A stretch of DNA of 38,024 nucleotides from an uncultured Chroococcidiopsis sp. (lineage in GTDB: Bacteria > Cyanobacteriota > Cyanobacteriia > Cyanobacteriales > Chroococcidiopsidaceae). The translations under genes and the position numbers were made by a program. The stretch covers positions 1 through 38,024 of the forward strand of contig CAXTYC010000041.1 of the NCBI GenBank assembly GCA_964248365.1. Direction: 5' to 3'. Each line of letters starts with the position of its first letter. Position 1 is the stretch's first letter. Under the pieces are notes generated by a model. It was not told where the DNA came from. It worked only from the letters and a program-made list of their open reading frames with translations, and ran no database searches. Of this stretch, positions 9,920 through 35,725 are shown piece by piece.

Positions 9920-9961
9920 TTATGTTAGGGTTTCGTGAGTTTTTAAGAATGTATTAAACGA

Positions 9962-9988: not shown

Positions 9989-10024
9989 GAAGAATTACAA
10001 AGGGAATGTCGGCTTTTGTCAGGG

Positions 10025-11026
10025 TTATAAATGTTTTAGGCAAATCCAGTCTTTTTCTACACAGGCGAAAGTTTGCCCTGGAAAGGGATCGGTCTGTGAA
10101 CGGTTAGGGGCTGTAATTAGGGCTGTCAGTTTTTCAATATGTTCAAAACTAGGGTTGCAAGGTAGTATCTGTTGCAAGATTTGACGCATGACGCGGCGTT
10201 GCAGGGCGAGTGGCGCTGTTTGCAATACGCGGCGATTGAGTCGTATAGGTAATTGACCAATTGCTACTTGTTGATCTGAAATGACTTGTTGATATAGTTG
10301 ATGGGCAGCTTGTTCTAAATATTGCACTTCTGCTTGTAATAGTTCAGCCGTTTGAGCTAATGTTGACTCGACTTGTGGGTTGAAGTGGTGCAAATAGGGT
10401 ATTAATTCCTGACGAATGCGGTTACGAGCATACTTTAAATCTTGATTTGTGGTATCTTCCCAAACTTTAATATGCATATCTTGGCAAAATTGTCCAGTTT
10501 CAGATCGTGTGATTTCCAAAAGTGGACGGACTAAGACAAGTCCAGCATCAAGGGGGCGTTTCCAAGTGAGGGCTTGCAAGCCATCAGCACCGCTGCCACG
10601 AATTAAGTTGTAAAGTAGAGTTTCGGCGCGATCGCTCAATGTATGACCTGTAACGATGCAGGTGTAACTATTTGTTAATGCGATCGCACTTAAAGCTTGA
10701 TATCTCCATTGTCGCGCTGCTGCTTCACTGGGCAATGAAAGCTCGGCTGTATGACAATAAAATGGGGTTGACTCTTTTTTAGCTAGCTGTTCTACGTAAT
10801 TTGCATTCGCTTGGGAGTCGGAACGCCAACGGTGATTGCAGTGAGCAATTCCTAATTGCCAGCCCCACTTTGATTGTAAATCTAATAGTAATTTGAATAA
10901 GCATAGCGAATCTTGCCCACCGGATACAGCAACGAGTATCCTTTGGTTACGTTCCAATAGCTGACGCGATCGAATTGTACGATGCAGCTTGGCATGAAGA
11001 GGATTCCAGGTGGAGCGGAGCATCAA
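10025..11026 (-). CDS. tilS: tRNA(Ile)-lysidine synthetase
   Basis: VAVSGGQDS PP-loop, TGHTLSDRAETLLYNLIRGSG and YARNRIR motifs. The ATG at 11023 may be the true start. Confidence 0.95.
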   Translation of the reverse strand: MMLRSTWNPLHAKLHRTIRSRQLLERNQRILVAVSGGQDSLCLFKLLLDLQSKWGWQLGIAHCNHRWRSDSQANANYVEQLAKKESTPFYCHTAELSLPSEAAARQWRYQALSAIALTNSYTCIVTGHTLSDRAETLLYNLIRGSGADGLQALTWKRPLDAGLVLVRPLLEITRSETGQFCQDMHIKVWEDTTNQDLKYARNRIRQELIPYLHHFNPQVESTLAQTAELLQAEVQYLEQAAHQLYQQVISDQQVAIGQLPIRLNRRVLQTAPLALQRRVMRQILQQILPCNPSFEHIEKLTALITAPNRSQTDPFPGQTFACVEKDWICLKHL

Positions 11027-11036
11027 TTATCAATTA

Positions 11037-11516
11037 TCAATTATCAATTAAATTAGTGGTTCTGCTGTCACTATACCAAGCTTGATTAATATCTAGAATA
11101 AGAATGGTAAAAGTGTTTTCTTGTTCAGTAAAAATTGCCCCGTAGCTGACTGCTTTGAGCAAATCGTTATTAGCAAAAGAGTGAGGCAAAGCTTGAATGC
11201 TATCTTTGGATAATTCTACTAAATTTGGTGGCTCTTCTACTGGAATTGCACAGATTATTCCTTGATTTACCTGGGCGATTAACAAAAAAGGGGTGTGAGT
11301 GTTTACATCAAGGGTATAATTGCTAGGCAACTTCTGATGTAAATCAAGTAGCGCGATCGCGTGGGAACCTATTTGTACTAATCCCCTAGTGGGTGAATTC
11401 CTATTATTCATAGGAGGATAATTGACCACCTTAAGAACAACAGAAATTGGTAGTGCTAGGAAATAATCAGCAATTTTAAAAACAATGAATTTTCCAAGCG
11501 CATTGGAGTTGTTCAT
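11037..11516 (-). CDS. Second, divergent CheW-like protein of the phototaxis cluster
   Basis: FIVFKIADYFLALPISVVLKVV CheW-like N-terminus. Immediately follows cheA. Confidence 0.75.
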   Translation of the reverse strand: MNNSNALGKFIVFKIADYFLALPISVVLKVVNYPPMNNRNSPTRGLVQIGSHAIALLDLHQKLPSNYTLDVNTHTPFLLIAQVNQGIICAIPVEEPPNLVELSKDSIQALPHSFANNDLLKAVSYGAIFTEQENTFTILILDINQAWYSDSRTTNLIDN

Positions 11517-11518
11517 AG

Positions 11519-14371
11519 CTATTTAGAGATTAAATCTGCTACTGTTGCTAACAATTCCTGCTCTAGATATGGCTTTTTCATATAAACAGTTGCCCCTAAT
11601 TCGCTGGCAACTAAGCGGTGCTTTTCACCAGTGCTAGAAGTCAATATTATCACTGGAATTTGCGATAGGATGGGGTCTTGGCGACGGTGGTTGAGAAATT
11701 CAAAACCATTCATGCGAGGCATTTCAAGATCGCAGATCACTAATTGAATATGCGAGTGCGATCGCAATTGTTCTAAGGCTTCATAACCATCACCTACCTG
11801 AACCACCTGATAGCCAGAATTTTGCAATGTTAAGGCTAGAGTTTCACGCCAGGTGAGTGAGTCATCCACGAGCAGCACTTTCACCGCCCTGTTTTTAAAC
11901 CCTAAATCCGGTTGCGAAGGTTGTTGAGGGCTGAGATAATTGGATGAAGTTGGAGTTATCAGACTTACAAAACTATCACTGGTGTGGGTAATTGGCGCTA
12001 CTTTAGTTGAAGCATTACTGTTTTGGTCAAACACATACTTTGTCAGCGCTGCTCCATCAATTACTAGTGCTAGTTGCCCCGAAGCCAAGATACTACCACC
12101 GTAAATATAGCATGGTGGTACAATTATCGAGTCTAAAGGTCGGATAACTAATTCCTGTTCCTCGATAATTTGGTCTACTTCTAAAGCTAAAACTTTATCC
12201 TGGTAACGCAGAAGCATTATTTGTCCCAGTTGCCAAGTGTCAGCGTTAAAATTTTCAGCAGTCGGCGCTGTTTGGGGTGCTGTAACCGCAGAGAAATAAT
12301 TCAAAATTTGCTCAAGCTTGCGCCCTGGGATTAGTTTTTCATCTGCGTCCTTACCCCATCTTAAAATGCCTTCCTCCCAGGAGGGAATTTGCGGCGAGGA
12401 AGGCATGAGAATTTGCTCAACGGTATCACTCAACACAGCGTATATCTTGGAACCAGCCTGACACAGAAACAATTTTGCCATCGTCAGGCTAAAAGGTATT
12501 TGTAGTAGAAAAGTCGTGCCTTGAAGCGGTTGAGAATGAACAGTAACTGCACCTTGAAGGGCTTGTAATTGGGCGCGGACGACATCAAGACCTATTCCCC
12601 GCCCAGAAAGGTTACTTACCGTAGTTGCAGTAGAAAAGCCTGGTTCAAAGAGTAAATCTATTAGTTGGGCTTCGTTGAGTTGGTAAGACTGTTGCGGCGA
12701 AACTATTTTACTGTCTACCGCTTGTTGCCGAATTTGTTCAAAGTTGAGTCCTTGACCATCATCTCGGACTTCAATCATCAGATTGCTACCTTGATTGAAG
12801 GCACGAATTTCAATTTGACCTGTTTGGTTTTTGCCTTGTTGTTGTCGCACTTCTAGGGGTTCAATCCCGTGATCGAAGGCATTGCGAACTAGGTGCAGCA
12901 GGGGATCGTAAAGCTTTTGGGCGATCGTCTTATCTACCAAAATTTCAGTACCACCCAGTTTTAACGCTACTGACTTACCGTGTAAGGTTGACAATTGTTG
13001 CAACACAGCAGGTAAGCGGCTAAAGACATCGCCCAAAGGAACCATTCGCGCTTCTAAACAGTCATCACGGGCGTTGGTTAACAGTCGGCTTTGTTTTTCT
13101 AGTAGCTGATTTGATTGGTGTGCCACTAAGTCAATGGTGTTGGTAGCTGCTTGCAGTTGCTCTACATTTTCTAGCAGGGAATGCACTAACAGATGGATGT
13201 GGCTATCGAGTTCTATTTCTTGTAGCTCAAAGTAATCACCCAGTTCTTCAAGCATTTGCTGATGCTGCTGCAACCGGGTGGATAATTCTTGAATTCCGCC
13301 TTGAAGTTTTTCATCCTCTAAGGATTGACGGTTTTGGTTGGTGAGTAATTCCCCAATCAGATAATTCAGGCGCTCCAAATGCTTGATATTGACGCGCACT
13401 GTATCAGGTATGGAAGTTGAAGTCGAGTTTTGTTTGTGTTGTTCGTTTGAGTCATTTTCGTAGGTAAGAGCAGGTATAATTTCAAACTCAGGTTCATCAA
13501 TAGTGGGTTCCTCCTCCTCGAAATCTGGAATATTCCAAATAGCATCAAGAAGCGAATCTGCCTCCTCAGCTCCCTCAGCTCCCCCTGCTTCCCCTCCAGC
13601 TAACTCTTGCAAGACAAAAGAAGGATTACCGCCCTCGGTGCGATCGCCAGCTAATATGCTTGCCCTACCTTGTTGAAAGTCTTCTAAAGCTGTCTGGGCT
13701 ATGATTAAAACTTGATCGGGATGTCTGGCTCTAGCAGCTATTGCAGTTGTTGCAATTGCTCCAAACCCTGGCAAATTCAAAGATTCAGCCAAGCCCAAGA
13801 ATACTTCAGCCTGGGTTTGAAGGGTGGAGGCGATTTCTTCGGGCTGACCGCTGGCTATAGCTTTAGCAATCTCTTCTAGTCTTTGAGCAACACCCACCTC
13901 AAAAATTGATTGCGTTACATCAAAGCCCAATTCTGTCGAAGTGGGTATGTAAGCGGAGTCAAAACAGTCTCCCAACTTCTCTTGCAGTTGGCTAAAGATT
14001 GCAGCAGAGTAGTCAAAAAGTTCGGCATCATTACTACTAACACCTGTAATTTGTGCTACTAAAGGTTCGCGTAAGCACTCGTATGCTTCAAAAAGTAAGG
14101 CTTCAGTTTCTTGATCGATACTTATATCTGGTTTGCACAGAGCTTTAAAAATATCCTCCAGCGAGTGAGCTACTGCCTTGATGCCTTCCAACCCTACACT
14201 AGCTGCTGCCCCTTTCAGAGTATGGGTAGCTCGCATTAAAGTGTGAACCTTGGTAATACTCCAGTCTTCTCTGAGACTGAGCAGTTCTTGTTCCAATACT
14301 TGCAACAGCAGCGGCGCTTCTTGAAGAAAATAAGCGTAGCTTTGCTCGCGGATAGTAGGGTCGTTAGTCAT
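11519..14371 (-). CDS. CheA-like hybrid kinase (Hpt-HATPase-CheW-REC), PixL/PtxE type
   Basis: LMRATHTLKG Hpt, HLVRNAFDHG N-box, SGRGIGLDVV G2 box, C-terminal receiver domain. Confidence 0.93.
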   Translation of the reverse strand: MTNDPTIREQSYAYFLQEAPLLLQVLEQELLSLREDWSITKVHTLMRATHTLKGAAASVGLEGIKAVAHSLEDIFKALCKPDISIDQETEALLFEAYECLREPLVAQITGVSSNDAELFDYSAAIFSQLQEKLGDCFDSAYIPTSTELGFDVTQSIFEVGVAQRLEEIAKAIASGQPEEIASTLQTQAEVFLGLAESLNLPGFGAIATTAIAARARHPDQVLIIAQTALEDFQQGRASILAGDRTEGGNPSFVLQELAGGEAGGAEGAEEADSLLDAIWNIPDFEEEEPTIDEPEFEIIPALTYENDSNEQHKQNSTSTSIPDTVRVNIKHLERLNYLIGELLTNQNRQSLEDEKLQGGIQELSTRLQQHQQMLEELGDYFELQEIELDSHIHLLVHSLLENVEQLQAATNTIDLVAHQSNQLLEKQSRLLTNARDDCLEARMVPLGDVFSRLPAVLQQLSTLHGKSVALKLGGTEILVDKTIAQKLYDPLLHLVRNAFDHGIEPLEVRQQQGKNQTGQIEIRAFNQGSNLMIEVRDDGQGLNFEQIRQQAVDSKIVSPQQSYQLNEAQLIDLLFEPGFSTATTVSNLSGRGIGLDVVRAQLQALQGAVTVHSQPLQGTTFLLQIPFSLTMAKLFLCQAGSKIYAVLSDTVEQILMPSSPQIPSWEEGILRWGKDADEKLIPGRKLEQILNYFSAVTAPQTAPTAENFNADTWQLGQIMLLRYQDKVLALEVDQIIEEQELVIRPLDSIIVPPCYIYGGSILASGQLALVIDGAALTKYVFDQNSNASTKVAPITHTSDSFVSLITPTSSNYLSPQQPSQPDLGFKNRAVKVLLVDDSLTWRETLALTLQNSGYQVVQVGDGYEALEQLRSHSHIQLVICDLEMPRMNGFEFLNHRRQDPILSQIPVIILTSSTGEKHRLVASELGATVYMKKPYLEQELLATVADLISK

Positions 14372-14407
14372 AGTATTTTGGTATAAATAATTACTACATT
14401 AATATGA

Positions 14408-14584
14408 AGGGGCTAGGGGCTAGAAGAGGGCAAAAGGAGGCAAAAGGAGGCAAAAGGAGGCTAAGGGAGAAAGTGCATTCAAATTTTTTGACTTGAAAGC
14501 AAGGATATGGTATAAAACACCCCCTCAGATCCCTCAGATCCCTCAGCTTTCCTCTAGTCCCTAGCCCCTGCGCCCTAGCCCCTA
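14408..14584. repeat. STRR cluster with inverted heptamers (GGGGCTA ... TAGCCCC) around AAAAGGAGGC and CCCTCAGAT tandems
   Basis: Seen directly between the MCP and CheA genes. Confidence 0.7.
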
Positions 14585-14585
14585 A

Positions 14586-17500
14586 TTATTCGACCTTGAA
14601 CTTACCTACACTGGTTTGGAGATCAGCCGCCATTGTCAGCAACTCTTGGAAGGCAGCGGCTAGGTGCATAGAATCAACAGAGGTTTTATTGGCAATGTTT
14701 GCCACTTCATTCATGGTTTGAGTGACTGACTGGGATTGCTGAGTTTGGATTTGGGTTGCTTTGGTGATGCCTTCTACTAGCTGGCTGATTTCGGCTGTAG
14801 CTTCAACGATCGCATTGAGACTGCTGCGGGTTTCTTTAACTAAGTCAGTGCCTGTAACCACTTGTTGAATACCTGTCTCCATTGCCTTGCTCACTTGGGC
14901 AGTACCTGCTTGAATTTCCTGCACTAGCGCGGCAATTTCTGTGTTAGCTGCTGCTGACTGTCTGGCTAGACTTCGCACTTCATCTGCCACTACGGCAAAC
15001 CCTCGCCCGTATTCCCCTGCTCTTGTTGCTTCAATCGAAGCATTTAGCGCCAATAGCTGAGTTTGAGTTGTGAAGTTACCGATCAAATTTACTACTCCCG
15101 AAATCTTTTGCGAGGATTGCGACAGACGCTTAATCAGCTTGCCTGTTTCCGCTACAGTTTCTCGAATAGCAAGAATTCCATCCACAGTCCGATTCATCGC
15201 TGCATCTCCAGCCCGTACAGTTTGGTTTGTTCTTTGGGCGGCTAATTCCACTTGTTGAGCATCGGCGGCAACAACTGCACTAGAATTTACCATTACTTGA
15301 ATTTTCTCTAGAGCTAGGTTAAGGGACTGTAACTGTCTATTAGCCTGAGTCGCTAGCGCTGACAGGTCTGATTCACTTGCTTGACAAGTTTTGGCAACTG
15401 TGCAACTAGCGGATTGCACTTGCACTACAGTTTTACGCAAGCTTTGCAGGGTGTTGTTATAGGCATCGGCGATCGTACCGACCTCATCATCTGTAATTGG
15501 AGCGCGAACGGTTAAGTCTCCATTCAAAGCTGGTCTTACCGCGATCAGCAGTTGAATAGCCCGCTGTTGTAGCTGTTCTTTTGTTTCTTTCTCTCGTTGG
15601 GCAATCTGCGTCAATTGCTCAGACTTCTGTCGCACCTGTTCTACATACTCAGCCTGTTTTAGGACTGCACCTACTTGTAAGCCAATCTGGGCTAAGCTAC
15701 TCACTTCTACCTCTTCCCAATCGCGGGGACTGGAGTTTTGATAAGCGCCTAGTAACCCCCAAAGCTTCTGATTCACAAACACAGGCACAATCATGTAAGC
15801 TCTGACTTGCATTTGCTCCAGTAGTTCGACATGACAAGGAGAGTGTCCGGCAGTGTAGATATCATTTACAGCCAGGGTTTCGTTGTGGCGATATCTTCCC
15901 CCTTGGGTTTCTTGCAAGTGGCTGTCTGAGATGATTGGCATAGTATCGAGCAAGCGACTCCAGCTGTGCGCAACAGATTCCGCTACAAACTCACCGCTCC
16001 AGTCAGGGTTAAATTTATATAGCGCTACCCTATCGACTCCCAACAGATAGCGGACATCTTGTGTCGTAATTTGGAAGATGGTTTTACTGTCGAATGAAGA
16101 TCGCAACAGCCTACTAGCAATTTTGGTCAAGCCTTGCTCTCGTGCAGCAGATGCAGCTAATTTGTCAGATGAAGCACGAACTTGCTGCAATGCTTCTGCT
16201 TGCTGTAGAGCAATACCCAGGGGATAGCTTACTTTGATCATGCATTCGATTTCCCATTCTTCCCAGTGGCGAGGAGCAGAGTTTTGATAAGCAGCCATCA
16301 AGCCCCAGAGTTTATCTCCTTGGAAGATGGGAACATTTATGTAGGCTCTGGCTTGGTATTTTTCTAAAGTTTCTAGGTAACAGGAGGAGAAGCCAGCAGC
16401 GTAGATATCATCAACTCGTAAAAACCGTTCACCTTTGGTATAAATTCCACCCTGAGTTTCTTTAACATAGGTATCAGTCGAAGTATGGGGAACAGGTAGG
16501 TTATTTACAACACAGCGATCGCCTACAACTTTATTACTCTTCAAGCTAGCATCATGTTCCTGTTCTTTGAGCAGTGCTAGCCAACCTGGAGCAACCGATT
16601 CAGCAACAAATTCACCACTCCAATCAGGATTGAAACGATAAAGTACTACGCGATCGGCTTTTAGCAACTGTCGTAATTCTCGTGTAGCAGTTCTAAAGAT
16701 GCTCCCAATATCTAGCGACTGCCGAATTTTATCAATAATACGGGCGATCGTACGCTCTAGTTCAGCAGATTTAGCGATCTGATCGACTTTAAGTTGAAGT
16801 TGATTCCGAACTTCTGCTTGCTGTAAGGCAATACCCAGGGGGCTACTTAGCTGTAGCATAATATTAATTTCCCCTTCTTCCCAATGTCTGGGACCGGAGT
16901 TGTGATAAGCGCCAAGTAATCCCCAAAGTTTATTATCTTGAAAAATCGGTACAATTATGTAAGCTCTAGCTTGGTATTTTTTTAAAGATTCCAGGTAACA
17001 GGGAGAAAAGTCAGCAGCGTATATATCATCAACAGATTTAAATTTTTCCCCTTTAGCATAGTCACCTCCCCTAGTTTCTTGCAGGTAAGTATCAGTATCA
17101 CTGGTAGAGTAAGCTGTTAAATCCTTCAAAGTACAGCGATCAAAGTTAGTTCTGTCTGCTTTCAATACTTGCTCATGCTCTTGCTCTGTAATTACCGAAA
17201 CCCAGCCAGCGGTGACAGATTCTGCTACAAATTCCCCACTCCAATCCGAATTAAAGCGATAAATTACTACTCGATCGGCTTTGAGCAAATGTCGCAATTC
17301 TTTGGTAGCGGTGCGGAAGATACTATTAATATCGGGCGAGCGCTGGATTTTCTCAATTACTTTGACCAGGACTTTTTGCTGCTGTGTAACACTTTGGAGT
17401 TGGGCGCGATATTCAACTGGTTGTAGGTTTAAGCTTAGCTCGGCGACAGTTTGATACAACAAATTAATCTCATTTTCCTGCCATTGCCGAGAGCTAGAGC

Positions 17501-18188
17501 ATTGCTGTACGACTAGCAAACCCCATATTTGACCTTCTAACACAATTGGCATAGCTAAGCTTGCTGTCACCTGAAATTTCTCCAAGAGTTGAACTTGGTA
17601 GGGACTCAGGTTTAACTGATAAATATCATCCAGCACTACTACTTGCTGCTGCTGGTAGGCTGAATCATCTTCAGCTCCAAACATCACTGCTGATATTGTT
17701 TCACCTAAAGTAGGGGTATAACCGCTTATCATTGACTCTGCTAAAACTACACCCCGATCTTTATCCTGAAAACGGTAGATGATAGCTCGATCTACTTGTA
17801 AATGGTGATGCACACAGGTAACTGTAGATTTGAGTAGAGTATCAACATCCGATGCCATCCGCATCTGCTCTACAATGGCTAATAATCGGGTTCGTTCACT
17901 TTTAAAGCTTTGCGAAGTTGCTGTTAGTTGATCTTTAAAACCTATTTGTAAAAGTTGCGCTAATTTCTCTAGCTGACGAAACTTAACTTGGGCTTCTGGG
18001 GTATTCAAAAATCCCTCTTTTTCTAGTTCAGATCGGAAAGCACTAACTAATGCCATCGGTTGATTTGCATCAAATTCGTCTCTAGCTCCCGTGCCTACTG
18101 CGCCGTTGCCAAGAGCTTTAGTTTGATCGTGTTGCCCTTGATTTAACTTAGGTTCCCGTTCTAGATTAAATAAATGTTTAATTTGCAT
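14586..18188 (-). CDS. Multi-GAF cyanobacteriochrome methyl-accepting photoreceptor, PixJ/PtxD type
   Basis: Four GAF domains ([32 protein letters not shown]), three with a bilin-binding Cys (FSPCY, FSSCY, HSPCH), plus a C-terminal MCP domain. No obvious transmembrane segment. Confidence 0.92.
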
Positions 18189-18409
18189 ACTTAATTCCTG
18201 CTTTTAGATTTCTGAGTGTACTTTAGAGGTTACTATTCCTTATTGATTATGAGTGCTATTTTCTGTGACTAAGACAACTTAAAAAAATTCTGGATTTAAT
18301 TAGTAGATTGCATAACGCCCCTGTTTTGTGTTTTCGTTGTAACAAATGAAGTTAAGAAAGTATATAATCTTATAGCAGTGAGTAGATAGATTAGGACAAG
18401 TCAATCAAA

Positions 18410-18470
18410 TTCGTAATTCGTAATTCGTAATTAATGATTCTCCCCCTCTCCCCTGATTCCCCCTACTCCC
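18410..18470. repeat. STRR repeats (TAATTCG)n and (TCCCCnn)n
   Basis: TTCGTAATTCGTAATTCGTAATT followed by TCCCCCTCTCCCCTGATTCCCC. The same blocks recur at 19414-19555. Confidence 0.7.
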
Positions 18471-19015
18471 TACTCCCTCCTATAACTGCGATGAACTTGC
18501 CACAAAGGACAACGAGCGATCGCAGAGGTATCCAACACTATTCCATTTACACCTGGTAAGTATCCCTTGACGAAAGGTAGTAATCTAGGTGAAAATACCT
18601 CGGCAGTGGCTCTTTGGAGTTGATCTGCGTCATGTAATTCGATATCCTTCACATACGGCACAACTAAACCCATAGACTGCCCATTGATCTGAATTACTAT
18701 TGCCATAGGTGGCTCTGTGTGTCCCCTTTGCGATCGCAAGGGGGGATAATCAATCAAATGATTTAGATCTATCAGCCAAAGCATTTTTCCGCGCCAGTTG
18801 TAAATTCCTAAAACACAACTTGGCATTTCTGGAACGGGTAAAATATCTACTATGCTAACGCTCAGAACTTCCGTAATTTGTTCTAGGGGAAGCAAACCCC
18901 TATCCTGAAAACCGAGAGCAAAGCGAAGAAACTTCTGACTGTTTTGTGACAGTGTCAGATCATTAGTTAATTGGCTAAGGCTGTTGGTTGTTACCAGTGG
19001 GTTAAATGACTCCAT
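18470..19015 (-). CDS. CheW-like protein, PixI/PtxC type
   Basis: ILPVPEMPSCVLGIYNWRGKMLWLIDL CheW motif. Confidence 0.9.
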   Translation of the reverse strand: MESFNPLVTTNSLSQLTNDLTLSQNSQKFLRFALGFQDRGLLPLEQITEVLSVSIVDILPVPEMPSCVLGIYNWRGKMLWLIDLNHLIDYPPLRSQRGHTEPPMAIVIQINGQSMGLVVPYVKDIELHDADQLQRATAEVFSPRLLPFVKGYLPGVNGIVLDTSAIARCPLWQVHRSYRRE

Positions 19016-19019
19016 CTGT

Positions 19020-19382
19020 CTAGTAAATTAATTGCTGGACGATTTGCATTAGCTTTTGCTGATCTACAGGTTTAGCTAGGTAGGCATTAGCTCCCAACAT
19101 CGAACCCCAAAGCATATCAACAGGGGTTCCTTTTGAAGAGCAGATCACAACGGGAATTTGTTTGGTGTCTTCATTGGTTTTCAGGTAATGACACAATTCA
19201 AACCCGCTTTGACCTGGTAAAATCACATCAAGAATTACCAAGTCCGGTTTCTGTAGCCGCAATTTTGTCTGGGCTTCCTCACCACTCTTAACACTAACTA
19301 CTGTAAGACCAAATTGTCTCAAATAAGCGGTTAGAACTTCGGTATCTGTTAAGCTATCTTCAACTACAAGCACTGTACTCAA
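19020..19382 (-). CDS. CheY-like response regulator, PixH/PtxB type
   Basis: Single receiver domain. TTG start with AGGAG RBS. Confidence 0.9.
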   Translation of the reverse strand: MSTVLVVEDSLTDTEVLTAYLRQFGLTVVSVKSGEEAQTKLRLQKPDLVILDVILPGQSGFELCHYLKTNEDTKQIPVVICSSKGTPVDMLWGSMLGANAYLAKPVDQQKLMQIVQQLIY

Positions 19383-19413
19383 CGCCTTTGCTCCTGCAAT
19401 ATATAACTGTTCA

Positions 19414-19556
<143 letters not shown>

Positions 19557-19562
19557 ACTGCA

Positions 19563-20786
19563 CTAAGCATTCTGATGGTTCCCTTGCCTAAATTGAACTG
19601 GTTTTGGTATTGATAAATACTTCCGTACTACGGCAAGTACCTTGCTTTGATCAATGGGTTTTGCCAAGAAATCCGTTGAGCGAACCATCTTAGCCCGAAC
19701 TCGATCTACAATTCCATCATTCCCTGTAAAAATAATTACAGGTGTATCTTTGAAAATCGAAGTCCGGCGGATTTGAGCGCAGATTTCATAACCATTGGCA
19801 ATGGGCATGACCAAATCCAAGAAAATCAAGTTGGGCTTGTGTTCTAACAACATGGGCAAGGCAAGGACGGAATCTTGCAGGCTGATGTACCGATAGCCTG
19901 CCTTAGTGAGAATTTGCCCCATAATCTGACTGTCTCTAGGGCTGTCGTCGATATATGCTATCAAGGGAGCATTCGGCTGGGGTTTAGAAGTATAAGATGA
20001 TGACCCAGAGGGAATTGTTGTCAATCGCTCAATTGATGCACCAATGTCGGGGATTTCGGTAAATTTCATTAACCCTTGACTGACATAGGGTATAAGTGAA
20101 GAGGTAAGTAGCAAAGGCTCTTGTCTCAACTTTAGAGCTAAGTCTCTTAAAGTCCGCTTTCCATCTACTAAGGTCGTGAGGCTGCGGTAGGCAATTGCCC
20201 CTGTTTGCTGTTGCAATCGTTCTTTGTGCCAAATTACCGGAGCAAGGTTAGGGGAAAAGTCTTGTAGCCCTGCGTGTTGCCATTTTGCCCAAGCTTGCTG
20301 TGCCAGCTTCCAAGCTGTGTCTGGTTGGATGAAGACGAGGGGAGAAGAATACAGTGTAGCTTCGGGGACGTAAATATAGGTTAGCCCAGTTGCCATGCGA
20401 TCGCGCTGCACATCCTCCTGCTGTATAATATCGAACAACACCTCGGCAATACTGCCTTGCACAACTCCTACCATCTGCTGGCGCAAAATTTCTCTTTTCT
20501 TTAGTAATTCTGCCAAATATTCATAATTGCGACTTTGACTATCCGTTCCTCCGGCAATACTGGTAGCATCAACGTTAATTTGCGGACAGTATTGACACAA
20601 CTGTCTGCACCAACGTCGCACTGGATGCGTACCGCCTGCATCCCCAATCAAATGACCCAAATGGAAATATAAACTCCACTGCTGACTTTGTGAGCCTTTG
20701 ATATCCAGTCTGCCGTTCCTTAGCTTTCCTTGGCTCCACGCCTGAAGCCAATTGCTCATACCTGTAAATAAATGGCTCTGGGTCAT
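19563..20786 (-). CDS. PatA-family response regulator, PixG/PtxA type
   Basis: PATAN-type N-terminus (GRLDIKG..WSLYFHLG..GGTHPVRRW) plus a receiver domain (FLDLVMPIANGYEIC). Confidence 0.9.
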   Translation of the reverse strand: MTQSHLFTGMSNWLQAWSQGKLRNGRLDIKGSQSQQWSLYFHLGHLIGDAGGTHPVRRWCRQLCQYCPQINVDATSIAGGTDSQSRNYEYLAELLKKREILRQQMVGVVQGSIAEVLFDIIQQEDVQRDRMATGLTYIYVPEATLYSSPLVFIQPDTAWKLAQQAWAKWQHAGLQDFSPNLAPVIWHKERLQQQTGAIAYRSLTTLVDGKRTLRDLALKLRQEPLLLTSSLIPYVSQGLMKFTEIPDIGASIERLTTIPSGSSSYTSKPQPNAPLIAYIDDSPRDSQIMGQILTKAGYRYISLQDSVLALPMLLEHKPNLIFLDLVMPIANGYEICAQIRRTSIFKDTPVIIFTGNDGIVDRVRAKMVRSTDFLAKPIDQSKVLAVVRKYLSIPKPVQFRQGNHQNA

Positions 20787-26672: not shown

Positions 26673-26861
26673 GAATGTAGGGGATTTCTAGTTAGAGAAG
26701 ATAGCAACTGTGGTTGGAGCTAATGCACTTTTTCTACCGCAGATGCTACCTCTAAATGGACTAGTGCAGCCTGGTAGAAATAACTTCTGTGTTTATTCAG
26801 TTATGAGTAACCCTCAAATTTCCACTTGACTACAATGAAGCCTAAAAATAATGGCAGGCTT

Positions 26862-27650
26862 TAAGAGCTGATTCGTAAAGAAAATCTAAAGAGCATCGAA
26901 TCTGGCTAGGATCAAGTTATAGGCTAAATTCAGTCTAATTGTGTTGCTGCCGATGAGCCGTCTACCCACAATTGAAAACCAAGAGCGCCAACCCTACCCA
27001 AGTGATTTAAGTGATGCCGAATGGGTCATTTTGAAGCCCCTGCTACCTGCACCAAAGGGTTTTGGACATCCTGTGGAAGTGGACTTGCGAGAAATTCTCA
27101 ACGGAATTTTTTATGTGCAACCTTGGGATGTCAGTGGGAAATGCTGCCCCATGACCTGCCTCCCAACACCACCGTGTATGGCTACTTTCAGAAATGGCAA
27201 CGTAGAGGCATCTGGCAGGTTCTTCACGATCAGGTGCGTCATCAACTGCGAATTGAGCGCACGGGCAAGATGAACAATCAAGCGTAGACAAGAGCCGATT
27301 CTCAATCAGTCAAGACAACGGAAAAAAGGGGGAGGTATACGGTTTCGATGGTGGCAAGAAGGTTAAAGGGCGTAAGCGCTATATCGTCGTAGATTCTCAA
27401 GGCTTGTTACTCGGTGTTTTAGTTACCCAAGCCATTAGACGTTTCCATAAATTAAAGTTCCAGCCCTAATAACAATTCGCGTAACGCTCTCGCATCACAG
27501 ATCACCTAAGAGGGCTGGAACCTTAATTTTTGGAGAAATCTAATGCCTCAGAACGACTAGGGGCAGTTGTAGTGCTGCATGAAGTTGTGGAGCAATTGTC
27601 CAAGTTGAAAGTGGTTTGGGTAGACTCTGGTTATTCGCGAGAAAACTTTA
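26862..27650 (+). mobile_element. Truncated IS5-family element with a transposase pseudogene
   Basis: YPSDLSDAEW..LREILNGIFY, WEMLPHDLP, DSQSVKTTEK, GFDGGKKVKGRKR..VDSQGLL, VWVDSGY. Frameshifted, interrupted by a hairpin unit at 27434 and cut at 27650 by an IS630 end. Left boundary approximate. Confidence 0.85.
27434..27544. mobile_element. Hairpin unit (MITE-like) inserted in the IS5 transposase
   Basis: 34-bp imperfect inverted repeats ATTAGACGTTTCCATAAATTAAAGTTCCAGCCCT / AGGGCTGGAACCTTAATTTTTGGAGAAATCTAAT. Removing 105-108 bp rejoins VTQA|NASERLG. Confidence 0.85.
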
Positions 27651-28156
27651 TACCAATTCTCTAAAAAGTGGCTACAGATGATAAAATAAGATTAAATTAG
27701 ACAATCAGATTTAAAATGGCTGGGACATATCACCTAGAAATCAAAGAGACTGTAGAAGAACTCAAGGAATTACTCACAAGACAAAAAACTGTATATTCTA
27801 AACAAAGAGTGCAGCTATTGTATCCCCTTAAAACAGGGCATAGTCAAACGATTTCTCGCAAGCGCACAAATTATAGGTCGTAACCGAGTCACCTGGCACA
27901 AGTGGATTAGACAGTATAAAGCTTTTGGAATTGAAGGACTATTAGAAAAAAAATATTCGCTCTTGTTGACCAAGAGTAATTCCCAGGTGGGCAGAAAAAG
28001 CACTCGAGAAAAGATTACACGAAGCACAAGGATTTAATGGTTATCAAGAAATTGTCAGGCAGGAACAAAACTTGCTCGTAAATACTTGCTACAAGACAGT
28101 TCACAAGCTCGTTTATGAACGTTTGGAATCCCAGCCGAAAGTACCACGTCCCCAAA
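27651..28156 (+). mobile_element. IS630-family element, left end and HTH ORF remnant
   Basis: Left end TACCAATTCTCTAAAAAGTGGCTACAGAT. ATG 27716 gives MAGTYHLEIKETVEELKELL..., frameshifted, breaking off after KVPRPQ. Homologous to ORF 33034-33534. Confidence 0.8.
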
Positions 28157-30292
28157 AGATTTCTCCAAAAATTAAAGCAACGACCGAATAACATGAACGC
28201 GTAACGCGAAAGCACAAAGGACAACCCAAGAGGGTAACAACTGAGGCAGAAAAATAAAGTCTTAGAATATTGCCTTAAAAAAATACAGCCCAGGAATGTG
28301 GCGATAAAAAATAATGGCAACCCGCCGTTCTCCCCGAATGCATTCGGGGATCTGGCGGACAGCGATGCCTAATACAACACAAACAACCCGTGATGCCGAC
28401 AAATTCCCTCTTGAGGGAAGCCATTATTTTTCTAGCCTTGCCTCCCATGCCCTCTTTGAGTGGGAGGCGAAGGAACCTGAAATTTTAGGTCAGGCAAATG
28501 TTCGTTATCTGTTTGCCCCCGTGAGTTACGAGGGGTGTCTGAAGCCTGACCTAAAATTTTTGCGCTCCTTTCCAGGTCTGTTGTGAACAATGGACTATCT
28601 ATTGGGTTTAAGGGCTGGGAGAATAGTTTAAGAAAATTGGGCAATCGGGCGCAAAAAGGTGCAATTGATTTATCAACAAGTACGATTACTTGAAAATAAA
28701 AGCACCTTTTTGCCCACCATCAGAATTCGTGACCGACTTATCCAAAAAATAGGGCAGGCTTAATAACCCCACGAGTAAACAAGGGGGCTTCACAACTATC
28801 GAACGAAGCCTGCCCTATTTTTAAAGAAGGAATTGGTGAGGAGCCGAAACGACAGTCGCATTTGAGGATTGCCCAATTTTCTATAGGTTCAAGGTAACGG
28901 CTAGCTGTATTTTTTGGCGAGGCAACCGCGTGAAAAATAGTGGGAAACCGATGTAAACCTTAAAAAATAGAGACAGCCGCTGTGTTTAGAGTTATCTGTT
29001 GGTATTACGAGGTATCGTAGTTGAAGGCTGTCTCTATTTTTTATGTCGTTTTTTCCTGGTTGGGAGGCACACCGCATGAAAAATAAGGCAGGAGAGGCTC
29101 AGCTTGAAAAATTGGCGGAACCAAATTTATCGTTATCTGTCGGGAATAACCAGATCTCGTGTTGTGTTGAAGGTTCCGCCAATTTTTTGCCGCCACGTCC
29201 CTTGGGCTTTTTGAGTAATCTGTGGTGCATAGTGGCTTATCTGTTTTGTATCAAGCCCGAAGGTTTTTTGGGAGGTAAAGCTTGAGAAAAAGTTGGCCGC
29301 AAATCTATCGTTATCTGTCGGTCGTGACGAGTTAATGGTGTTGTTTGAAGCAGGCAACTTTTTCTTGTCGCAGTGTTCACTCGTCGCCATTACATTTGGC
29401 GCAAAAAATAAAAATTTGACCGTGTTTTAAAGTTTATTCGTTGGTAGTGAGAGAGCTGGATGTGACGGTCACGCATCTCCGGAAAAAATGGGGCAGGCAA
29501 ATTTATCGTTGTCTATGGGTAGTAACGAATTGTCGTGTTGTGTTTACGCAGCTCCCATTTTTCTAGGTTCACCCTCGTCAAATTTTTATTTTCAAGCCTG
29601 ACTTATATTCCCGCCCTCTTTAAGTGATGTGTGGCGCATAGTGGGTGAAGGATTTGGTTTAAGGGTTGGGAGGCATGGCTTGGAAAAAAGGGGAACACGA
29701 CCTACCTTAAAAAAATGAGACATGAAATGTTGCCTGAAAAAATATGTCGGTCCGTGTATTAGGTTATCTGTTGGTATTACGGGGGATTTGTGTTGACGGA
29801 CCGACATATTTTTTGGCTAAGGCTCTCCTGCCTTCTATGGAGGTTATCTGTTGGTGCGGGAGTCGATGCCAAAAAATATGTCAGGCTTTTTGTCTTGTCG
29901 AAAGGTATATATGGTTATTGCGTGTTGTGATGAAGCCTGACTTATTTTTTTTAAGGCAATATTCCAAGAGGGATCTTTTAAACAAGGCACGGGAGGTAAA
30001 AGCTAGAAAAATAAGTCAGGCTTTTTGAGTGGTTGGTAATGTATAGAATATTGCCTTAAAAATAAGGCGAACCCTCTTTGAGTTATCGTGTTGACATCAT
30101 GGTTATTAGTGTTGTTATTAGGGCTGAAGCCTTATTTTTGGCATCGGCTCCCATATTCGGGGATCTGTGTTGTTATAAGCCTGACTTATTTTTTGTCGCG
30201 TTCCTTCCAAGTCTCATTTTTTTATGTCGGTAAATCCTGGGAAGGCTCTTTTGGGTTATTTGTGTTGCTGGGCGTGTTATCTGTTGGGTTTA
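28157..30292. repeat. Nested array of about 16 A-tract/T-tract hairpin units
   Basis: Perfect or near-perfect arm pairs include 28480-495/28544-559, 28631-646/28867-882, 28745-761/28806-822, 28961-978/29026-043, 29107-122/29172-187, 29737-755/29796-814, 29871-888/29933-950, 30007-023/30177-193 and 29708-721/30211-224. Confidence 0.9.
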
Positions 30293-30765
30293 GAGGGCAT
30301 TTCTAAATTAATCGTTAAGTTTTTTCTTCCAGTTCACCTAACCGTTGCAACATCAACCGAATCATTGCCCCTTGGATTATTGCCTCACTCACTTCTGGTA
30401 AAAGTTCATAATCCTTGCTTAAACGTCGGTTTTGATTAAGCCAGCCAAAGGTTCGTTCCACAACCCATCGCTGGGGTAAAATCACAAACCCTGATTCAGA
30501 GCGCTTAACCACTTCAACTTTTGCGCCACACAACTGCTCGACAACTCGTGCGAAGTTCTCTTTTTGATCACCTTGATCCACCCACAGCAGTTGCAATGCC
30601 TTGGCTTGTTGTGCATCTAAATCGTGTACCGCAATCACCCCACCTGGTTGCTCTGAGCAGTTGGCATTGAGGACGACTACCGCCATCAGCAACCCCAAGG
30701 TATCGACCAAGAGAAACCGCAAGCGTCCTTTGACTAACTTGCCACCGTCGAAGCCATAGACCTCC

Positions 30766-30811
30766 ACGCCAGTTGCTTCAAGTCGGCACCGCCGCCCAAC
30801 GCACTGGCTCC
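30766..30811. repeat. Small dispersed repeat-like insertion at the IS5 frameshift site
   Basis: GCCAGTTGCTTCAAGTCGGCACCGCCGCCCAACGCACTGGC (GCCAG/CTGGC ends) splits the GAAAAAAGGG|GGAGGT motif that is intact in the IS5 copy at 27321. Confidence 0.7.
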
Positions 30812-31084
30812 CTTTTTTTCCGTCGTTTTGACCGACTGACTATCGATACTGCCTGCAGCGAAAGAATGCTTGCCCACTTGGCAGGGTAACTCTCGTCGCA
30901 AAGAGTCATGAATCTGTTGCCAAATGCCTTTTCGCTGCCACCGGCGAAAGTATTTGTAGACTGTTTGCCAGGCGGGTAAATCTTTTGGCAAGTCGCTCCA
31001 AATGCAACCATTGTGTATTTGGTAGAAGATCGCATTGAGAATTTCTGTGTGATCTACTTGGCGCTTGCGTCCCCTCGCTTTAGG

Positions 31085-31928
31085 GGTAGTGCAATTTTGT
31101 AAAGGATAGAGGAAAATAGCCAGGAGTTGAGTTTTTCCCCGAATGCTCAGGTATGAAACCCTATTTGATTTGTCCAACTTGCGGTTCCGATGACATCATG
31201 AAAAACGGTACAACTCGTCGGGGCAAACAAAACTACAAATGCCGTGATTGCGGTCGTCAGTTTGTCGAAAACCCGCAGTGGAGACCGATTCCTCCTGACA
31301 GCAAAGCGATGATAGACCGCTTGTTGCTAGAGCGAGTTCCTTTATCAGGCATTGCCCGTGTAATGCAGGTATCTGAGGACTGGTTGCAAGGATACGTCAA
31401 CCGTTGCTATGAGACAGTGCCACATAAGGTGCAGGTGCAACCCAAAAACAAAGTCCGCTTGGAAGTGCAGATGGACGAGTTGTGGTCGTTTGTGGACGAC
31501 AAAGGCAACAAGCAGTGGGTATGGCTGGCAATTGATGTGGCAACTCGTGAGATCGTTGGGTGCTACATCGGCGACCGTTCTAGAAATTGTGCTGTTGCTT
31601 TGTGGGAATCGATGCGCCTGAGTGTATCGACAGTGCGCGGTCATCTACACCGATTACTGGGAGGCTTATGCGACGGCACTGCCACGTCAACGTCACCGAG
31701 CTGTAGGTAAGGAAAGTGGATTGACCACCTACATTGAACGGTTGAATAACACACTCAGGCAACGGGTGTCACGCTTAGTGAGAAAAACATTGTCCTTCTC
31801 CAAGAAGTTGGATAATCACATCGGTGCGATCTGGAATTTTATTCATTACTACAATCAGAGGATTCAAGCGCAGCGAGCTAGTTGTTAAGAAGATTATTTT
31901 TCTCCATCCTTTACAAAATACCACTACC
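31085..31928 (+). mobile_element. IS1-family insertion sequence (InsA/InsB, ORFs 31153-31710 and 31622-31888)
   Basis: Inverted repeats GGTAGTGCAATTTTGTAAAGGAT / ATCCTTTACAAAATACCACTACC. Motifs CPTCGS..KNG..GKQNYKCRDCGRQF, QMDELWSFV, YTDYW and IERLNNTLRQR. Frameshift near 31615. Confidence 0.92.
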
Positions 31929-32079
31929 CAACTGTTTTTCTGTGCTCACCTACTTAAGCTTTTATTTAGAAATGCGCTCTCATTGACTGTTTTCAAATAT
32001 TCCTCAATCTAGTTGCTCAACATTTTGCTGATTCCGGATTAATTATTCAACTTGACAACGGCGCATTTCATTAAATTGA

Positions 32080-32350
32080 CTCCTGAAAAATTAAGCCAGC
32101 CAAAGAAGGCTTGAAAAAATAAGTTTGACTGTCAACAAAGATCTCTCATTCACAACCAGTCAACTCAATACACGGTCAAACTTATTTTTTTGCGCCAAAT
32201 GTAATTTTGAAACCCCACGATTAATCATGGGGAGCAACAGATTTACATTTGACGCAAAAAATAAAAATTTTACCGTGTTTTAAAGTTTATTCGTTGGTAG
32301 TGAGAGAGCTGAATGTGACGGTAAAATTTTTATTTTCAAGCCTGACTTTA
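32080..32350. repeat. Second cluster of hairpin units (two in opposite orientation inside an outer pair that closes at 33603-33618)
   Basis: Arm pairs 32114-132/32172-190 and 32256-276/32318-336. Outer AAAAATTAAGCCAGCC (32086-101) pairs with GGCTGGCTTAATTTTT (33603-618) across the IS630. Confidence 0.85.
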
Positions 32351-32355
32351 ACTCA

Positions 32356-33595
32356 TACCAATTCACGAAATGCCTGATACAAATAAAGCTTCCAGAATAA
32401 AATCCCATCCAGTGATAGAAGCGACAACTCAATCAGTTAGCTTGTCGAGAATTTGAGCCAGAGCTGCTCTCAATTCATCTAAAGTCTCAAATGATTGCCA
32501 CCTCAGGTATTTCTTCATTTCTTTCCACAATCTTTCAATCGGATTGACTTGGGGAGAATGGGCAGCTTGAAACAGTAAAATGACGGTTTCGGGAACTTGT
32601 AATAACTCACAGCTATGAAATCTGCCTTGGTCTAACTGAATAATATGTATATCATCAGGATAAGCTTGTACAAACTGTGCCAAAAACTGCTCAAAACAAA
32701 CAGTATCCAGGTGAGAATACTCAAAAAAAAGTGGTCTCCTGTCAGCGGTCCACAATTCCATACAGATAAAATGCCTTGGGTGTCCATTGTACTTGTCCGA
32801 CTGGTTTAACTCCTTTTAGTGTTAATAACGTTTCCTCAAAATAATGAAACAGCCTTCAAGTGCGAATACCTGCTGTGTACGAGAGATTTTTAAATAAGGC
32901 TGTTTCATTATTTTTAGGATTCCATATAACTTTCTGCCGGTAATCGTCTTCAGACCAAAGCGACTTTCATCTTCACACCAGTAAGGAACATTTTTGTCTT
33001 GACTTGGTGTGACTAAGTACTCCAAAACGACATCTAGCAATTGAGGCAGTTTTTTTTAAAATTTTCTTGTGCTTGGGGTGATTGTTTGATGCTTTGCGGA
33101 CGTGGCACTTTCAACCCCGCTTTAAGTAGGTAATGTACTGTGTCATGTACCACTTTATAGGACCCATCAATTCCTTCCGAAGCTTTTAACCAAGTTTGTA
33201 CTTCTCCATAACTTTCAAATCCCTCTGGTTGTGCTAGTTCCAACCGCCGCCGTTCTCTGACTTCTAAAGGAATAATTTTTGGTCTTTCTGGACGAGGAGG
33301 CACATCTAATAACCTATCTATTCCACCTGCTCTGTATTGCCGTAGCCACCGTTGTACTGTGACTCGACTTTTTCCCAGTACTACTGCTAAATGCTGTACT
33401 GTCTCTACTTGTTGAGTTTTTAGTAAATACAATGCTTGAATACGCACCAACGCAAATGCTTCTTTTTGTTGCTTTAACAACTGTTTTAACTCGGATGCTG
33501 TCTCTGCTATATTGATTTTAACTACGCCTGTCATCGGGAAAAATAGTTCATAGCTGTTTTTCTACTATTTGTATCATATACAAAGTGAATTGGTA
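32356..33595 (-). mobile_element. IS630-family insertion sequence, both ends present, transposase disrupted
   Basis: TA-flanked inverted repeats TACCAATTCAC..TGATACAAATA at both ends. HTH ORF 33034-33534 and DDE pieces (DESRFG, QLDQGRFH, SPQVNPIERLW). Confidence 0.92.
32826..32929. mobile_element. Hairpin unit inserted in the IS630 transposase
   Basis: 19-bp perfect arms AAAATAATGAAACAGCCTT (32838-856) / AAGGCTGTTTCATTATTTT (32896-914). Removing 104 bp (TAA duplicated) restores GRKLTLKGVKP. Confidence 0.88.
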
Positions 33596-33630
33596 TCAGA
33601 AAGGCTGGCTTAATTTTTTTAGGAAACATC

Positions 33631-33736
33631 TCATAAAGCTAAACGTCTTCAAGTACCATATCAGATCATTTTATTATTTCAGAGTCCCCATTCTCCACAA
33701 TTAAATCCACTTGAGCAAGTTTGCCAATATATGGAG
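33631..33736 (+). pseudogene. IS630 transposase DDE fragment
   Basis: HKAKRLQVPYQIILLFQSPHSPQLNPLEQVCQYM. Confidence 0.75.
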
Positions 33737-34984
33737 CAGTGACACGATTTCTGATAATGCCAAAATACTTAACTAGACAGAATGCTTTCCATCCAATGTA
33801 TGTCACTTATTTCTTGACACATACAGGCTTGAAGAAGCGCAAAGTTTATCTAGTAGTTTATTACCCCATACTTTAGGAATATCTACTAGGTGCAAAATCA
33901 AATAAGCTATTCCCTGTAGCATAAATTTGTATAGTAATACCATTGACATTTTTTGTAATGAGATGGTCAAGTTTTAGATGCATCTTTAGAAACTTCCATA
34001 GCAACTCGATTCCCCACGGCATCGATAAATTTCCAGAATTTCTTCATCAGTAATAACTCCTTCTCCTGTTCGAGGTAAATTTGTCACTAATCGATACTCT
34101 GCCTTCGTTTCCAAATCACAGAATTGGATAACTCGGTATAACCCCCGCTTTTGACGCATTTGGCGAAAAGAAAATAAGACAACCTTTAAACCACACAAAC
34201 TATCCGTTATGCACCACCTACCCATTAAAGAAGGTTGTCTTATTTTCTAAGCCTTACCCCCGCGACCAGTCCCTACCTGCGTTAATTCAGATTCTTCATG
34301 AAATTATAGCTTGTATTTATTCCCAATTCGGAGAACAAAATACTTATCTGCTTCCACTGTATTTTGTAAAAACTTTAGACCAGCAAATCCTCTATCCATC
34401 ACCCCAACATCATTTTCTGGCAGGGCATTCATCATCTTTTGACCATATTTATAATCATGGTTTAACCCAAAAATAATGAAATTCTCCTCAGTAACACCAG
34501 TGTTTAAGTGCAAAGAACTAAAAAGTTTGAAGGAATGATATCCCAAACTCCACAACAATTTACCTGTTAAAGAGATTGTGGTTGAATCTATCGGACAATA
34601 GCATATTTATCATTAAGTCTCTTTCGAGAAACTAGCCTAGATAGTTGGCGGTAAATTTGTTGAAATATCTGCTGGCTCCGATGAGAGCTAGCTTTAGAGA
34701 AAGTAGAGATATTTACAGAAAAGCCTGTGTTGTTTAATCGCGCGAAATTTATCTCTCATACTTGTTAAGCTTTTATCCATTGCATAGCTTAACCAACACT
34801 AGACAAACAAGCGGGTGTTCAAAACTGGATAATCGTTTTTAGGTAGGGGCGCTAGAACCTTTACAGGCAATCTTGGGAAACGAACTTATAATCACAAGCT
34901 ATTACTATTATTCTAAAATCCGCCCAAGTTTATCAGATTTTGGGTTGATTTTTTATGTGTTTTTTTTAACATTCAACACTTCTG
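33737..34984 (-). mobile_element. IS4-family element with a transposase pseudogene
   Basis: Minus strand reads LPKNDYPVLNTRLF, PIDSTTISLTGKLLW, GVMDRGFAG and YRLVTNLP..IYR, with several frameshifts and stops. One end is CAGAAGTGTTGAATGTTAA (ending 34984). The other end is not recognisable. Confidence 0.8.
34157..34264. mobile_element. Hairpin unit inserted in the IS4 transposase
   Basis: 18-bp perfect arms AGAAAATAAGACAACCTT (34169-186) / AAGGTTGTCTTATTTTCT (34231-248). Removing 108 bp rejoins QVGTG|RQKRGLYRV. Confidence 0.88.
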
Positions 34985-35159
34985 GAAAATTAACTAAACA
35001 AATTATTGCATCTATTGCTGGAAGGCAATATATTTTAGAGGCTTTATCTGTTGCCGCCTTTTAGAGAATTGGTATTATCCAATCCAATCATCGCATCAAT
35101 TACTCAACGACAATATATCCTGCTTGCTTTATCTGTTGCCCTATTTTAGAGAATTGGTA
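34985..35159 (+). mobile_element. Two tandem IS630 right ends with C-terminal coding remnants
   Basis: IIASIAGRQYILEALSVAAF* and IIASITQRQYILLALSVALF*, each followed by TTTTAGAGAATTGGTA (ends 35074 and 35159), complementary to the left end at 27651. Confidence 0.8.
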
Positions 35160-35722
35160 TAACTCAATTACCTCAACAGATAACGTAACAATTGCCTTCC
35201 CCAATTTTTCGAGCCTTGCCTCCTACGGGTTCAAACCAAACAGATAACTCAATAACACCGTGCCGTCAACTCAAAAAACCCACCCTCTTTTTCCAGGTCC
35301 TAGCCTCGCAGAGCTTCATACCCCGTCCTTCACCCACTATGCACCACAGACTACTCAAAAAAGCTCTCCCATATTTTTTAGGCAATTTTCACTCGTCTCA
35401 TTTTTTTAGAGTTACATCGTGTTCCCCTATTTTTTGCAACGCCCAGTTGTACCCTCTTAAAAAGATCCACGTCACCAACTCGAAAACCCTAATACAGGGT
35501 AATACCATGAGCATAAAAATAAATCCTGCCTGCGTATTGGGTATATTGGTTGTGAGCGGAGGATCTTGAAAAGATGGCAGGATTTATTTTTAAAGTCTCA
35601 TCTTTTGGCTGGCATTATTTTTCACAAGATAGCCTCCCTTGGCTTTAAACCTTTGTAGATTATTCCGCAGTGCGACACAGATATTTTTAGAAGCCTGCCA
35701 TTATTTTTCTTCTTCTTCCCTC
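35160..35722. repeat. Third cluster of hairpin-family sequence (mostly right arms, one complete unit)
   Basis: Complete pair 35514-530/35576-592. 35326-35435 is an inverted homolog of about 29617-29746. AACAGATAAC loop motifs present. Confidence 0.8.
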
Positions 35723-35725
35723 AAA

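Follow-up and report, generated by a model that had tools for sequence, protein, structure and literature searches.

A nest of short MITE-like inverted-repeat elements, probably built by repeated insertion into earlier copies, in a Chroococcidiopsis genome

The 2,136-nt array at positions 28157..30292 of a contig from an uncultured Chroococcidiopsis sp. is very probably a nest of about twenty non-coding elements of ~105-115 bp, produced as non-autonomous, MITE-like DNA inserted again and again into copies already present. The window is the whole 38,024-nt stretch that was analysed (contig C41 of G000, a 5.58-Mb draft of 102 contigs); its gene content is cyanobacterial, with chemotaxis and pilus operons and a kinase with pentapeptide repeats, and from ~25.7 kb to 36 kb it is a field of broken IS5, IS630, IS1 and IS4-type genes. 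The first-pass annotation had treated the array as one object, a set of hairpins inside hairpins, and had offered for it either repeated insertion into existing units or folding as one large multibranched RNA or single-stranded DNA structure. The first of these origins is upheld by the evidence below and the second is not, and among the many nests that this dispersed element group forms, the array is simply the largest. The nest itself reaches past 28157..30292, at least from 27435 to 35723.

Each unit consists, in order, of an outer end of 13-15 nt, an A-tract, a stem of ~11 nt, a loop of ~45 nt, the mirrored stem, a T-tract and a different outer end. Perfect repeats of 16-20 bp start 13-15 nt inside the unit, the outer segments agreeing only in their first few bases, and the loop carries two related short motifs ~21 nt apart (e.g. 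at 28991-29017). The outer ends fall into about ten consistently paired families (A, A2, B, C, D, E, F, G, H and I), and two further families, M and N, were found in relatives. Motifs described earlier as recurrent flanks of the A-tracts are indeed present, but they belong to the elements themselves, as these outer ends.

The bracket-like nesting of arms is real, and all twelve of the arm pairs listed previously are present when 16-nt arms are used wherever only single positions had been given. Pairing is complete at 28278/28915 (12/12), 28480/28559 (16/16), 28631/28882 (16/16) and 29708/30224 (14/14), perfect over 12 nt at 28651/28713 and 17 nt at 28745/28822, and amounts to 19 nt at 29737/29814, 15/16 at 29871/29950, 17 nt at 30007/30193 and 11 nt at 30058/30139. 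The pair reported to begin at 28306 matches at 12/12 but starts one base later (28307-28318/28420-28431). The proposed long-range pair 29085/29834 does match at 17/19, but it forms no enclosing bracket, because it joins two like junctions of host arm and element end and crosses other brackets. A bracket that had been overlooked, 29405/29592, encloses 29471-29576. Perfect inverted repeats of at least 12 nt number 21 in the array. Of 17 window tiles, 14 have none or one, and the remaining three, with 14, 5 and 5, hold units; 200 sequences from a Markov model of the array have 0.81 on average and 10 at most.

Support for serial insertion comes from removing inner units in turn, at cut points picked by the analyst from the end families and with a profile built from simple units only. 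Four of the five closed outer units then reduce to unit length (97-110 nt), and only after removal do they match the full profile (1-77 or 1-78, E 3e-5 to 4e-3). The fifth, of family I, comes down to 88 nt with a core of 53 and gives no profile match after reduction. Closed units take up 1770 of the 2136 nt of the array, to three levels; the remainder consists of unclosed ends, arms and loops (Table 1).

The array starts where the open reading frame of an IS630 transposase breaks, as had been noted, and its first sequence is homologous, as also proposed, to the single family-G unit upstream (70% over 37 nt, with a 19/19 inverted match of the ends). That upstream unit is flanked on either side by a motif presumed to be that of its host gene, and an empty copy of the site was sought and none found. 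At the other border an IS5-type element begins at 30293, exactly where a right arm is expected. The closing halves of the units at the right end were likely removed by a deletion involving IS5, since the element begins at the due right arm, its two 3-base flanks are unlike each other and the middle of the host IS630 gene is missing. Family-H ends at 26831-26865 and 35690-35723 match each other 8.9 kb apart and bracket the whole IS field; 8 bases of arm are present at both, and the ends are the remains either of a single unit that took in the whole field or of two copies that each lost a part.

Table 1. Features of the array and its surroundings, in window coordinates
Feature	Position	Strand	Remarks
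Family-H opening end and arm, then IS5 end	26831..26865	+	
Single unit, family G, inside broken IS5-type transposase gene	27435..27543		38-nt arms, 84%
IS630 transposase gene, 5' fragment, host of array	27710..28156 (IS630 match 27710-28161)	+	fragment stops where array begins
Family-G left end, arm and loop, then opening end of another unit	28157..28260		neither closes within array
Outer unit, family D, three insertions	28261..28918	+	right outer end itself interrupted; 658 to 97 nt, core 78, arms 16/17, profile 1-77, E 1.7e-4
Inner unit, family A, in left arm of 28261..28918	28291..28448	-	palindromes 28331-28350, 28404-28419
Inner unit, family A, in loop of 28261..28918	28460..28575	+	
Family-I unit, in right arm of 28261..28918	28617..28898		holds two more elements; same 4 bases at 28613-28616 and 28899-28902
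Short inner element J	28648..28724		core about 63 nt; approximate ends
Inner unit K	28725..28842	-	
Family-A-like unit, opening end and arm start	28919..28939	+	unclosed
Simple unit, family B	28940..29059	+	E 5.9e-11
Family-A-like unit, left arm interrupted, right arm shortened	29060..29267	+	after removal profile 2-74, E 0.0028
Simple unit, family A, in left arm of 29060..29267	29090..29205	+	
Simple unit, family A	29268..29380	+	
Outer unit, family A2, one insertion in right arm	29390..29605	+	215 to 109 nt, profile 1-77, E 3.1e-5
Inner unit L	29471..29576	+	
Loop remnant	29606..29664	+	unit arms not placed
Family-A unit opened at 29665, loop 30242-30292	29665..30292	+	right arm missing at IS5 end; profile 2-55 only, E 1.6
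Outer unit, family B type, insertions in left arm, loop and right arm	29694..30241	+	548 to 106 nt, arms 17/17, profile 1-78, E 0.0015
Inner unit, family D, in left arm of 29694..30241	29722..29829	+	E 3.5e-12
Inner unit, family D, in loop of 29694..30241	29857..29968	+	ends reversed relative to loop
Family-A unit in right arm of 29694..30241, one insertion inside	29989..30210	+	222 to 110 nt, profile 1-78, E 0.0039
Innermost unit, family D	30043..30154	+	third level
IS5-type element, IS1-type element (31084-31929) inside	30293..31979	-	terminates array
Probable 3' remnant of IS630 host gene, middle missing	31983..32090 (approximate)	+	read against IS630 copy 32429-33534
Two further A2-type units	32100..32350		
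Family-F unit inside second IS630 gene	32824..32929	+	TTA both sides; identical copy on C37
Single further unit	34160..34262	-	approximate ends
Second, smaller nest, closed by family-H end	35200..35723		arm matches that at 26844

Units are dispersed through G000. A hairpin unit finder gave 68 matches, of which two were removed as unrelated repeats and 66 retained, and none on a 2-Mb Markov control; the core profile gave 107 matches at E<=0.01 and 120 non-redundant ones at E<=0.1, at a density of about 10 per Mb on large contigs versus 62 per Mb on small ones. Of 100 paired ends, 78 lie 95-114 nt apart, measured end to end. Smaller nests occur on contigs C7, C22, C28, C40, C58, C64 and C74, and genome-wide clustering is borderline (27 matches with a neighbour within 200 nt, against a mean of 14.9 and a maximum of 27 in 300 runs of a weak null). 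Near copies of the A2 unit 29390..29605 lie at 32243 and on C66. The composite of I and J at 28617-28898 recurs on C21 (42350-42520), C26 (2700-2990), C28 (5600-5780) and C44 (14950-15240); nests can thus move as a whole, because the composite is found at these four other sites with the same flanking 4 bases.

The element group is patchy and spread over more than one lineage. A covariance model matched six of 61 genomes (G000 66, G014 29, G005 17, G021 2, G046 2 and G052 1), and five congeners gave no match among the 75 candidates scored in each. Similar units, with other ends again, lie on Fischerella sp. NIES-4106 plasmid 2. Among 150 further genomes of the phylum three matched, one of them unit-like and two resembling short terminator-type hairpins, and BLAST of the array over 401 genomes of the order matched 13, of which those in G005 and G014 are real and ten others looked like chance. 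Loop-pattern scans gave matches in viral (3), genome (15) and metagenome (22) sequences, none of which the profile recognised, from collections in which near relatives may be absent; individual units or ends, used as BLAST queries against plasmids, found chance matches, and a Nostoc plasmid with an IS630-type MITE gave no core match. A match on a Microcystis plasmid (NZ_CP025929.1, L284) was rejected as a CRISPR-like repeat; at 2100-2520 of that sequence an unannotated CRISPR-like array of 35-nt repeats lies between two transposase genes. In G014, the family-D copies at L095 and L106 (contigs C419 and C217) have common immediate flanks, different stems and opposite loop orientation.

The units are short, non-coding and multi-copy, and comparison of filled with empty sites shows that they insert, as expected of MITEs. 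One splits a Tn554-like tnpB. Two family-C copies, in an IS1 and in a group II intron gene, have TA on both sides when set against empty homologues of 69-79% identity, and a separate 108-nt insert at an empty-site comparison has no duplication. The A2 copy in an IS630 gene on C66 adds 106 nt net with no duplication, of TA or otherwise, intact transposases of 94% and 85% identity having a single codon between the two flanks. What stands at the junctions depends on the family: C and M have TA, F has TTA, I has four bases, N has GG and A2 has no duplication. At the A/D sites in arms there is no duplication, and comparison with partner arms and uninterrupted kin suggests that one target base is missing. 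Nine of the 22 ends that start with the 5-mer of 29991-29995 (a set including three family-C ends and one doubtful end) have GGC 3-5 nt upstream, against a background of 1.1%, and all nine sit in arms of other units; a preference of the A/D families for GGC in kin arms would explain the brackets. On C8 (62850-63512, L317) a family-A unit lies in frame in what is taken, from its flanking motif, to be an IS903-like transposase, adding about 36 codons and no stop; no empty copy of this site was found.

Near-identical family-C copies occupy different sites on C37 (333, 6071, 11233, 12316, 22421, 35843 and 37065) and C86 (2376 and 3307), likely a recent burst. On C86 the two copies enclose an IS630 fragment, lie inverted to each other and might behave as a composite. 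On C40, from 45303 onward, a group II intron-type element lies in the loop of an A2 unit, and in the Fischerella plasmid two intron genes have units just past their ends.

The mover of families C and M is likely of the IS630 type, to judge from ends and target. ISY100, of the IS630 family, inserts at TA and duplicates it according to the account in PMC2170065, and families C and M, which occur outside the array only, have IS630-type ends with TA at both junctions. The route to the family-M match led from a family-M query to a Nostoc MITE and from there to an annotated IS630 transposase; family-M ends agree with the termini of this Nostoc-linked element and with those of an Oscillatoria copy in 21-23 of 30 positions, where shuffles reach at most 17-20, and with those of an IS630 in G014 itself at 23/30. 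Three family-C ends match related IS630 termini at 19/26, a partly circular comparison in that the termini were picked on a shared 6-mer, although two of the IS630 terminus sets were fixed independently by copy boundaries. The IS630 loci compared with families C and M have no stem-loop core, and the units are therefore not plain internal deletions of them. Families A, A2, B, D, G and I do not have such ends, no array end exceeding the shuffle maximum.

Other candidates for moving the array families gave no cognate. In four comparisons their ends matched none of 44, 60, 72 and 32 IS termini, some of which were wrong picks by the repeat finder. No long or autonomous element with array-family ends was found in G000, an assembly without contigs below 2141 nt in which one could be missing, and none with unit ends was found in 40 stretches of relatives or in the Fischerella plasmid; apparent long elements with matching arms were rejected, their spans being pairs of separate copies. 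IS110 had no matches in G000 and six loci in four relatives, without the core; 20 IS607/resolvase loci had no cognate ends among the matches listed and a best profile match of E 0.69; IS256 was absent from all six genomes scanned and ISAzo13 from G000 and G014, and rve-family elements gave no cognate. In a terminus scan 8 of 158 ends beat the maximum of 12 shuffles by 1-2 matches, which is not taken as real.

An improbable alternative is that the units are sites of a tyrosine or serine recombinase, with the arms as crossover sites at which the loop is inverted or swapped and the nest as a by-product of recombination among sites, or a cassette platform of the integron or dif-module array kind. 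The unequal outer ends, the several families without duplication, the loop found both ways round, the near-fixed length of about ten helical turns and the weak tie of the loop to the end family (rho 0.29; in 24 of 66 cases the unit with the most similar loop has the same ends) would all suit such a system, and G000 has 15 tyrosine recombinase matches, several of them close to units. These neighbours, however, are mostly genes interrupted by units or share small mobile contigs with them, and the adjacent integrases were ruled out as movers since units interrupt or just adjoin them. Moreover, there are no genes between the arms, collapsed end pairs number one among 100, arm sequences vary freely, unlike crossover sites read by a protein, the 26 resolvase, IS607 and IS110 loci gave the one weak profile match mentioned above, and families C and M bear IS630 ends.

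It is highly improbable that the region is transcribed as a large multibranched RNA, or that the single units act as small structured RNAs or two-way terminators under selection. An A-tract, GC stem and T-tract is the layout of a two-way terminator, which the units resemble, and stretches of the array fold far below shuffles. Yet both strands of two nests do so alike (z -9 to -12), loops lie on both strands inside the array, and at 45 nt they are long for terminators, whose loops are usually shorter. Rfam 15 gave no family at its cut-off and three sub-threshold matches, all outside the array; the order of units recurs at no other locus, and units break genes. In 46 aligned cores 95.8% of cells are paired, with 199 double changes, figures biased in that units were chosen as hairpins; arm mismatches are strand-neutral (G-T 12, A-C 12), and 28 of the 62 pairs with similar ends have their loops in opposite orientations with respect to those ends. 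Since the arms covary, mismatches are strand-neutral and loops flip, the unit is, as far as its sequence tells, a DNA inverted repeat and not an RNA. Template switching at short inverted repeats homogenises or corrects arms (as described in PMC5941160) and inverts spacers (as described in PMC8604942), and would account for both perfect arms and flipped loops without selection on the fold.

It is scarcely credible that the assembler created the nest by stitching together repeat copies from different places: G000 is a draft and no compared contig spans the whole array, but the units differ strongly among themselves and reduce cleanly, and metagenome contigs from two runs (of one study, which could be the source) match 28434-28609 and 29429-29693 exactly and 28548-28946 with 5 differences, and run across several nested junctions with more than 31 nt on either side.

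Among known systems the DNA nest resembles most closely the prokaryotic MITEs, in which cyanobacteria are described as rich (PMC3184786, PMC10969869, PMC3542288). Nezha, the MaeMITEs and the MITEs of Anabaena sp. 90, compared here by their published descriptions (PMC3184786, PMC3542288), are likewise short, non-coding, multi-copy and gene-breaking and are bounded by inverted repeats, as the units broadly are, and Nezha resembles ISNpu3 much as C and M unit ends resemble transposon ends. The units differ from them in having a perfect repeat that is subterminal and drifts freely in sequence, outer segments of 13-15 nt that are not alike on left and right, and one core under many end families, several of which insert without duplication. 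Families C and M have the terminal ~15-27 nt and the flanking TA in common with IS630/Tc1-mariner elements (ISY100, as described in PMC2170065, and L281, L308, L309, L371 and L372), and the IS630 copies at these five loci have, like the units, a variable stretch followed by an A/T-rich tract; in contrast, the IS630 loci have no core, array-family ends do not match theirs and the A2 copy has no TA duplication. REPINs, which work with RAYT transposases, also form ~100-bp hairpin units in several groups per genome, with unordered clusters and asymmetric intermediates, and their clusters are reported to arise by insertion into or beside existing copies (PMC3116915). REPIN arms are, by that description, conserved palindromic REPs, whereas unit arms vary and are not self-complementary, so that the units do not qualify as REPINs.

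Subterminal inverted repeats or unequal ends, short cores and the targeting of other repeats are features of IS1111/IS110 and IS607. The units are like these in their subterminal repeats or unequal ends, in short cores and in repeat targeting, but their outer segments are longer, and no such ends or cores were found at the 26 loci of these families. CORE-SINE-type retroposons of animals join a common central module to ends from different autonomous partners; the shared module makes them an analogy, but they are RNA-based and eukaryotic, and the units show no sign of an RNA intermediate. The openly accessible literature searched held no account of this element group or of a shared core with exchangeable ends.

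The nest would then have arisen as MITE-like units inserted serially into earlier copies inside a broken IS630 gene, after which IS5 would have deleted the right part of the array and left several units unclosed. Transposases would act in trans, of the IS630/Tc1-mariner type for C and M and presumably another enzyme for the array families A, A2, B, D, G and I. That enzyme would, in the case of A, A2, D and G, insert without target duplication, often losing about one base, and in the case of A/D would prefer GGC in the arm of an existing unit, giving the brackets. Template switching during replication would keep the arms perfect and flip the loop, and a folded product under selection would not be required. 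More tentatively, and with rather more doubt than confidence, the core stem-loop may have acquired the ends of several unrelated mobile systems, IS630 in some families and elsewhere an undescribed enzyme that does not duplicate its target, drops a base and aims at the arms of kin, so producing deep nests.

MITEs, and repeat clusters inserting into one another, are already known. What is unusual is the combination of about ten end families and differing junction signatures with the same inner module and near-fixed length, as well as the arms of that module, which stay perfect while their sequence drifts and at which some families aim. Were the exchange of ends around one core true, the group would be a prokaryotic DNA counterpart of the core-sharing retroposons and a pointer to new insertion chemistry. 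If the core aids movement it would be a cis enhancer working across transposases, and if the non-duplicating families have an enzyme of their own, their ends would serve as bait for finding it. In these genomes units break genes, and nests record the order of insertion.

Small palindromic inserts of 16-40 nt in unit loops and arms, at 28331-28350 and 28404-28419 of the window and in loops on C2, C5, C64 and C70, are a separate, smaller repeat class. A collapsed family-B unit of 45 nt on C50 (19015-19059) has its two outer ends but lacks the loop. Elsewhere in the window, 2465-20786 holds two chemotaxis/pilus gene clusters (PatA-like, CheY, CheW, MCP and CheA, names presumed from domain patterns), one of which includes a multi-GAF photoreceptor-type MCP at 14586-18188.
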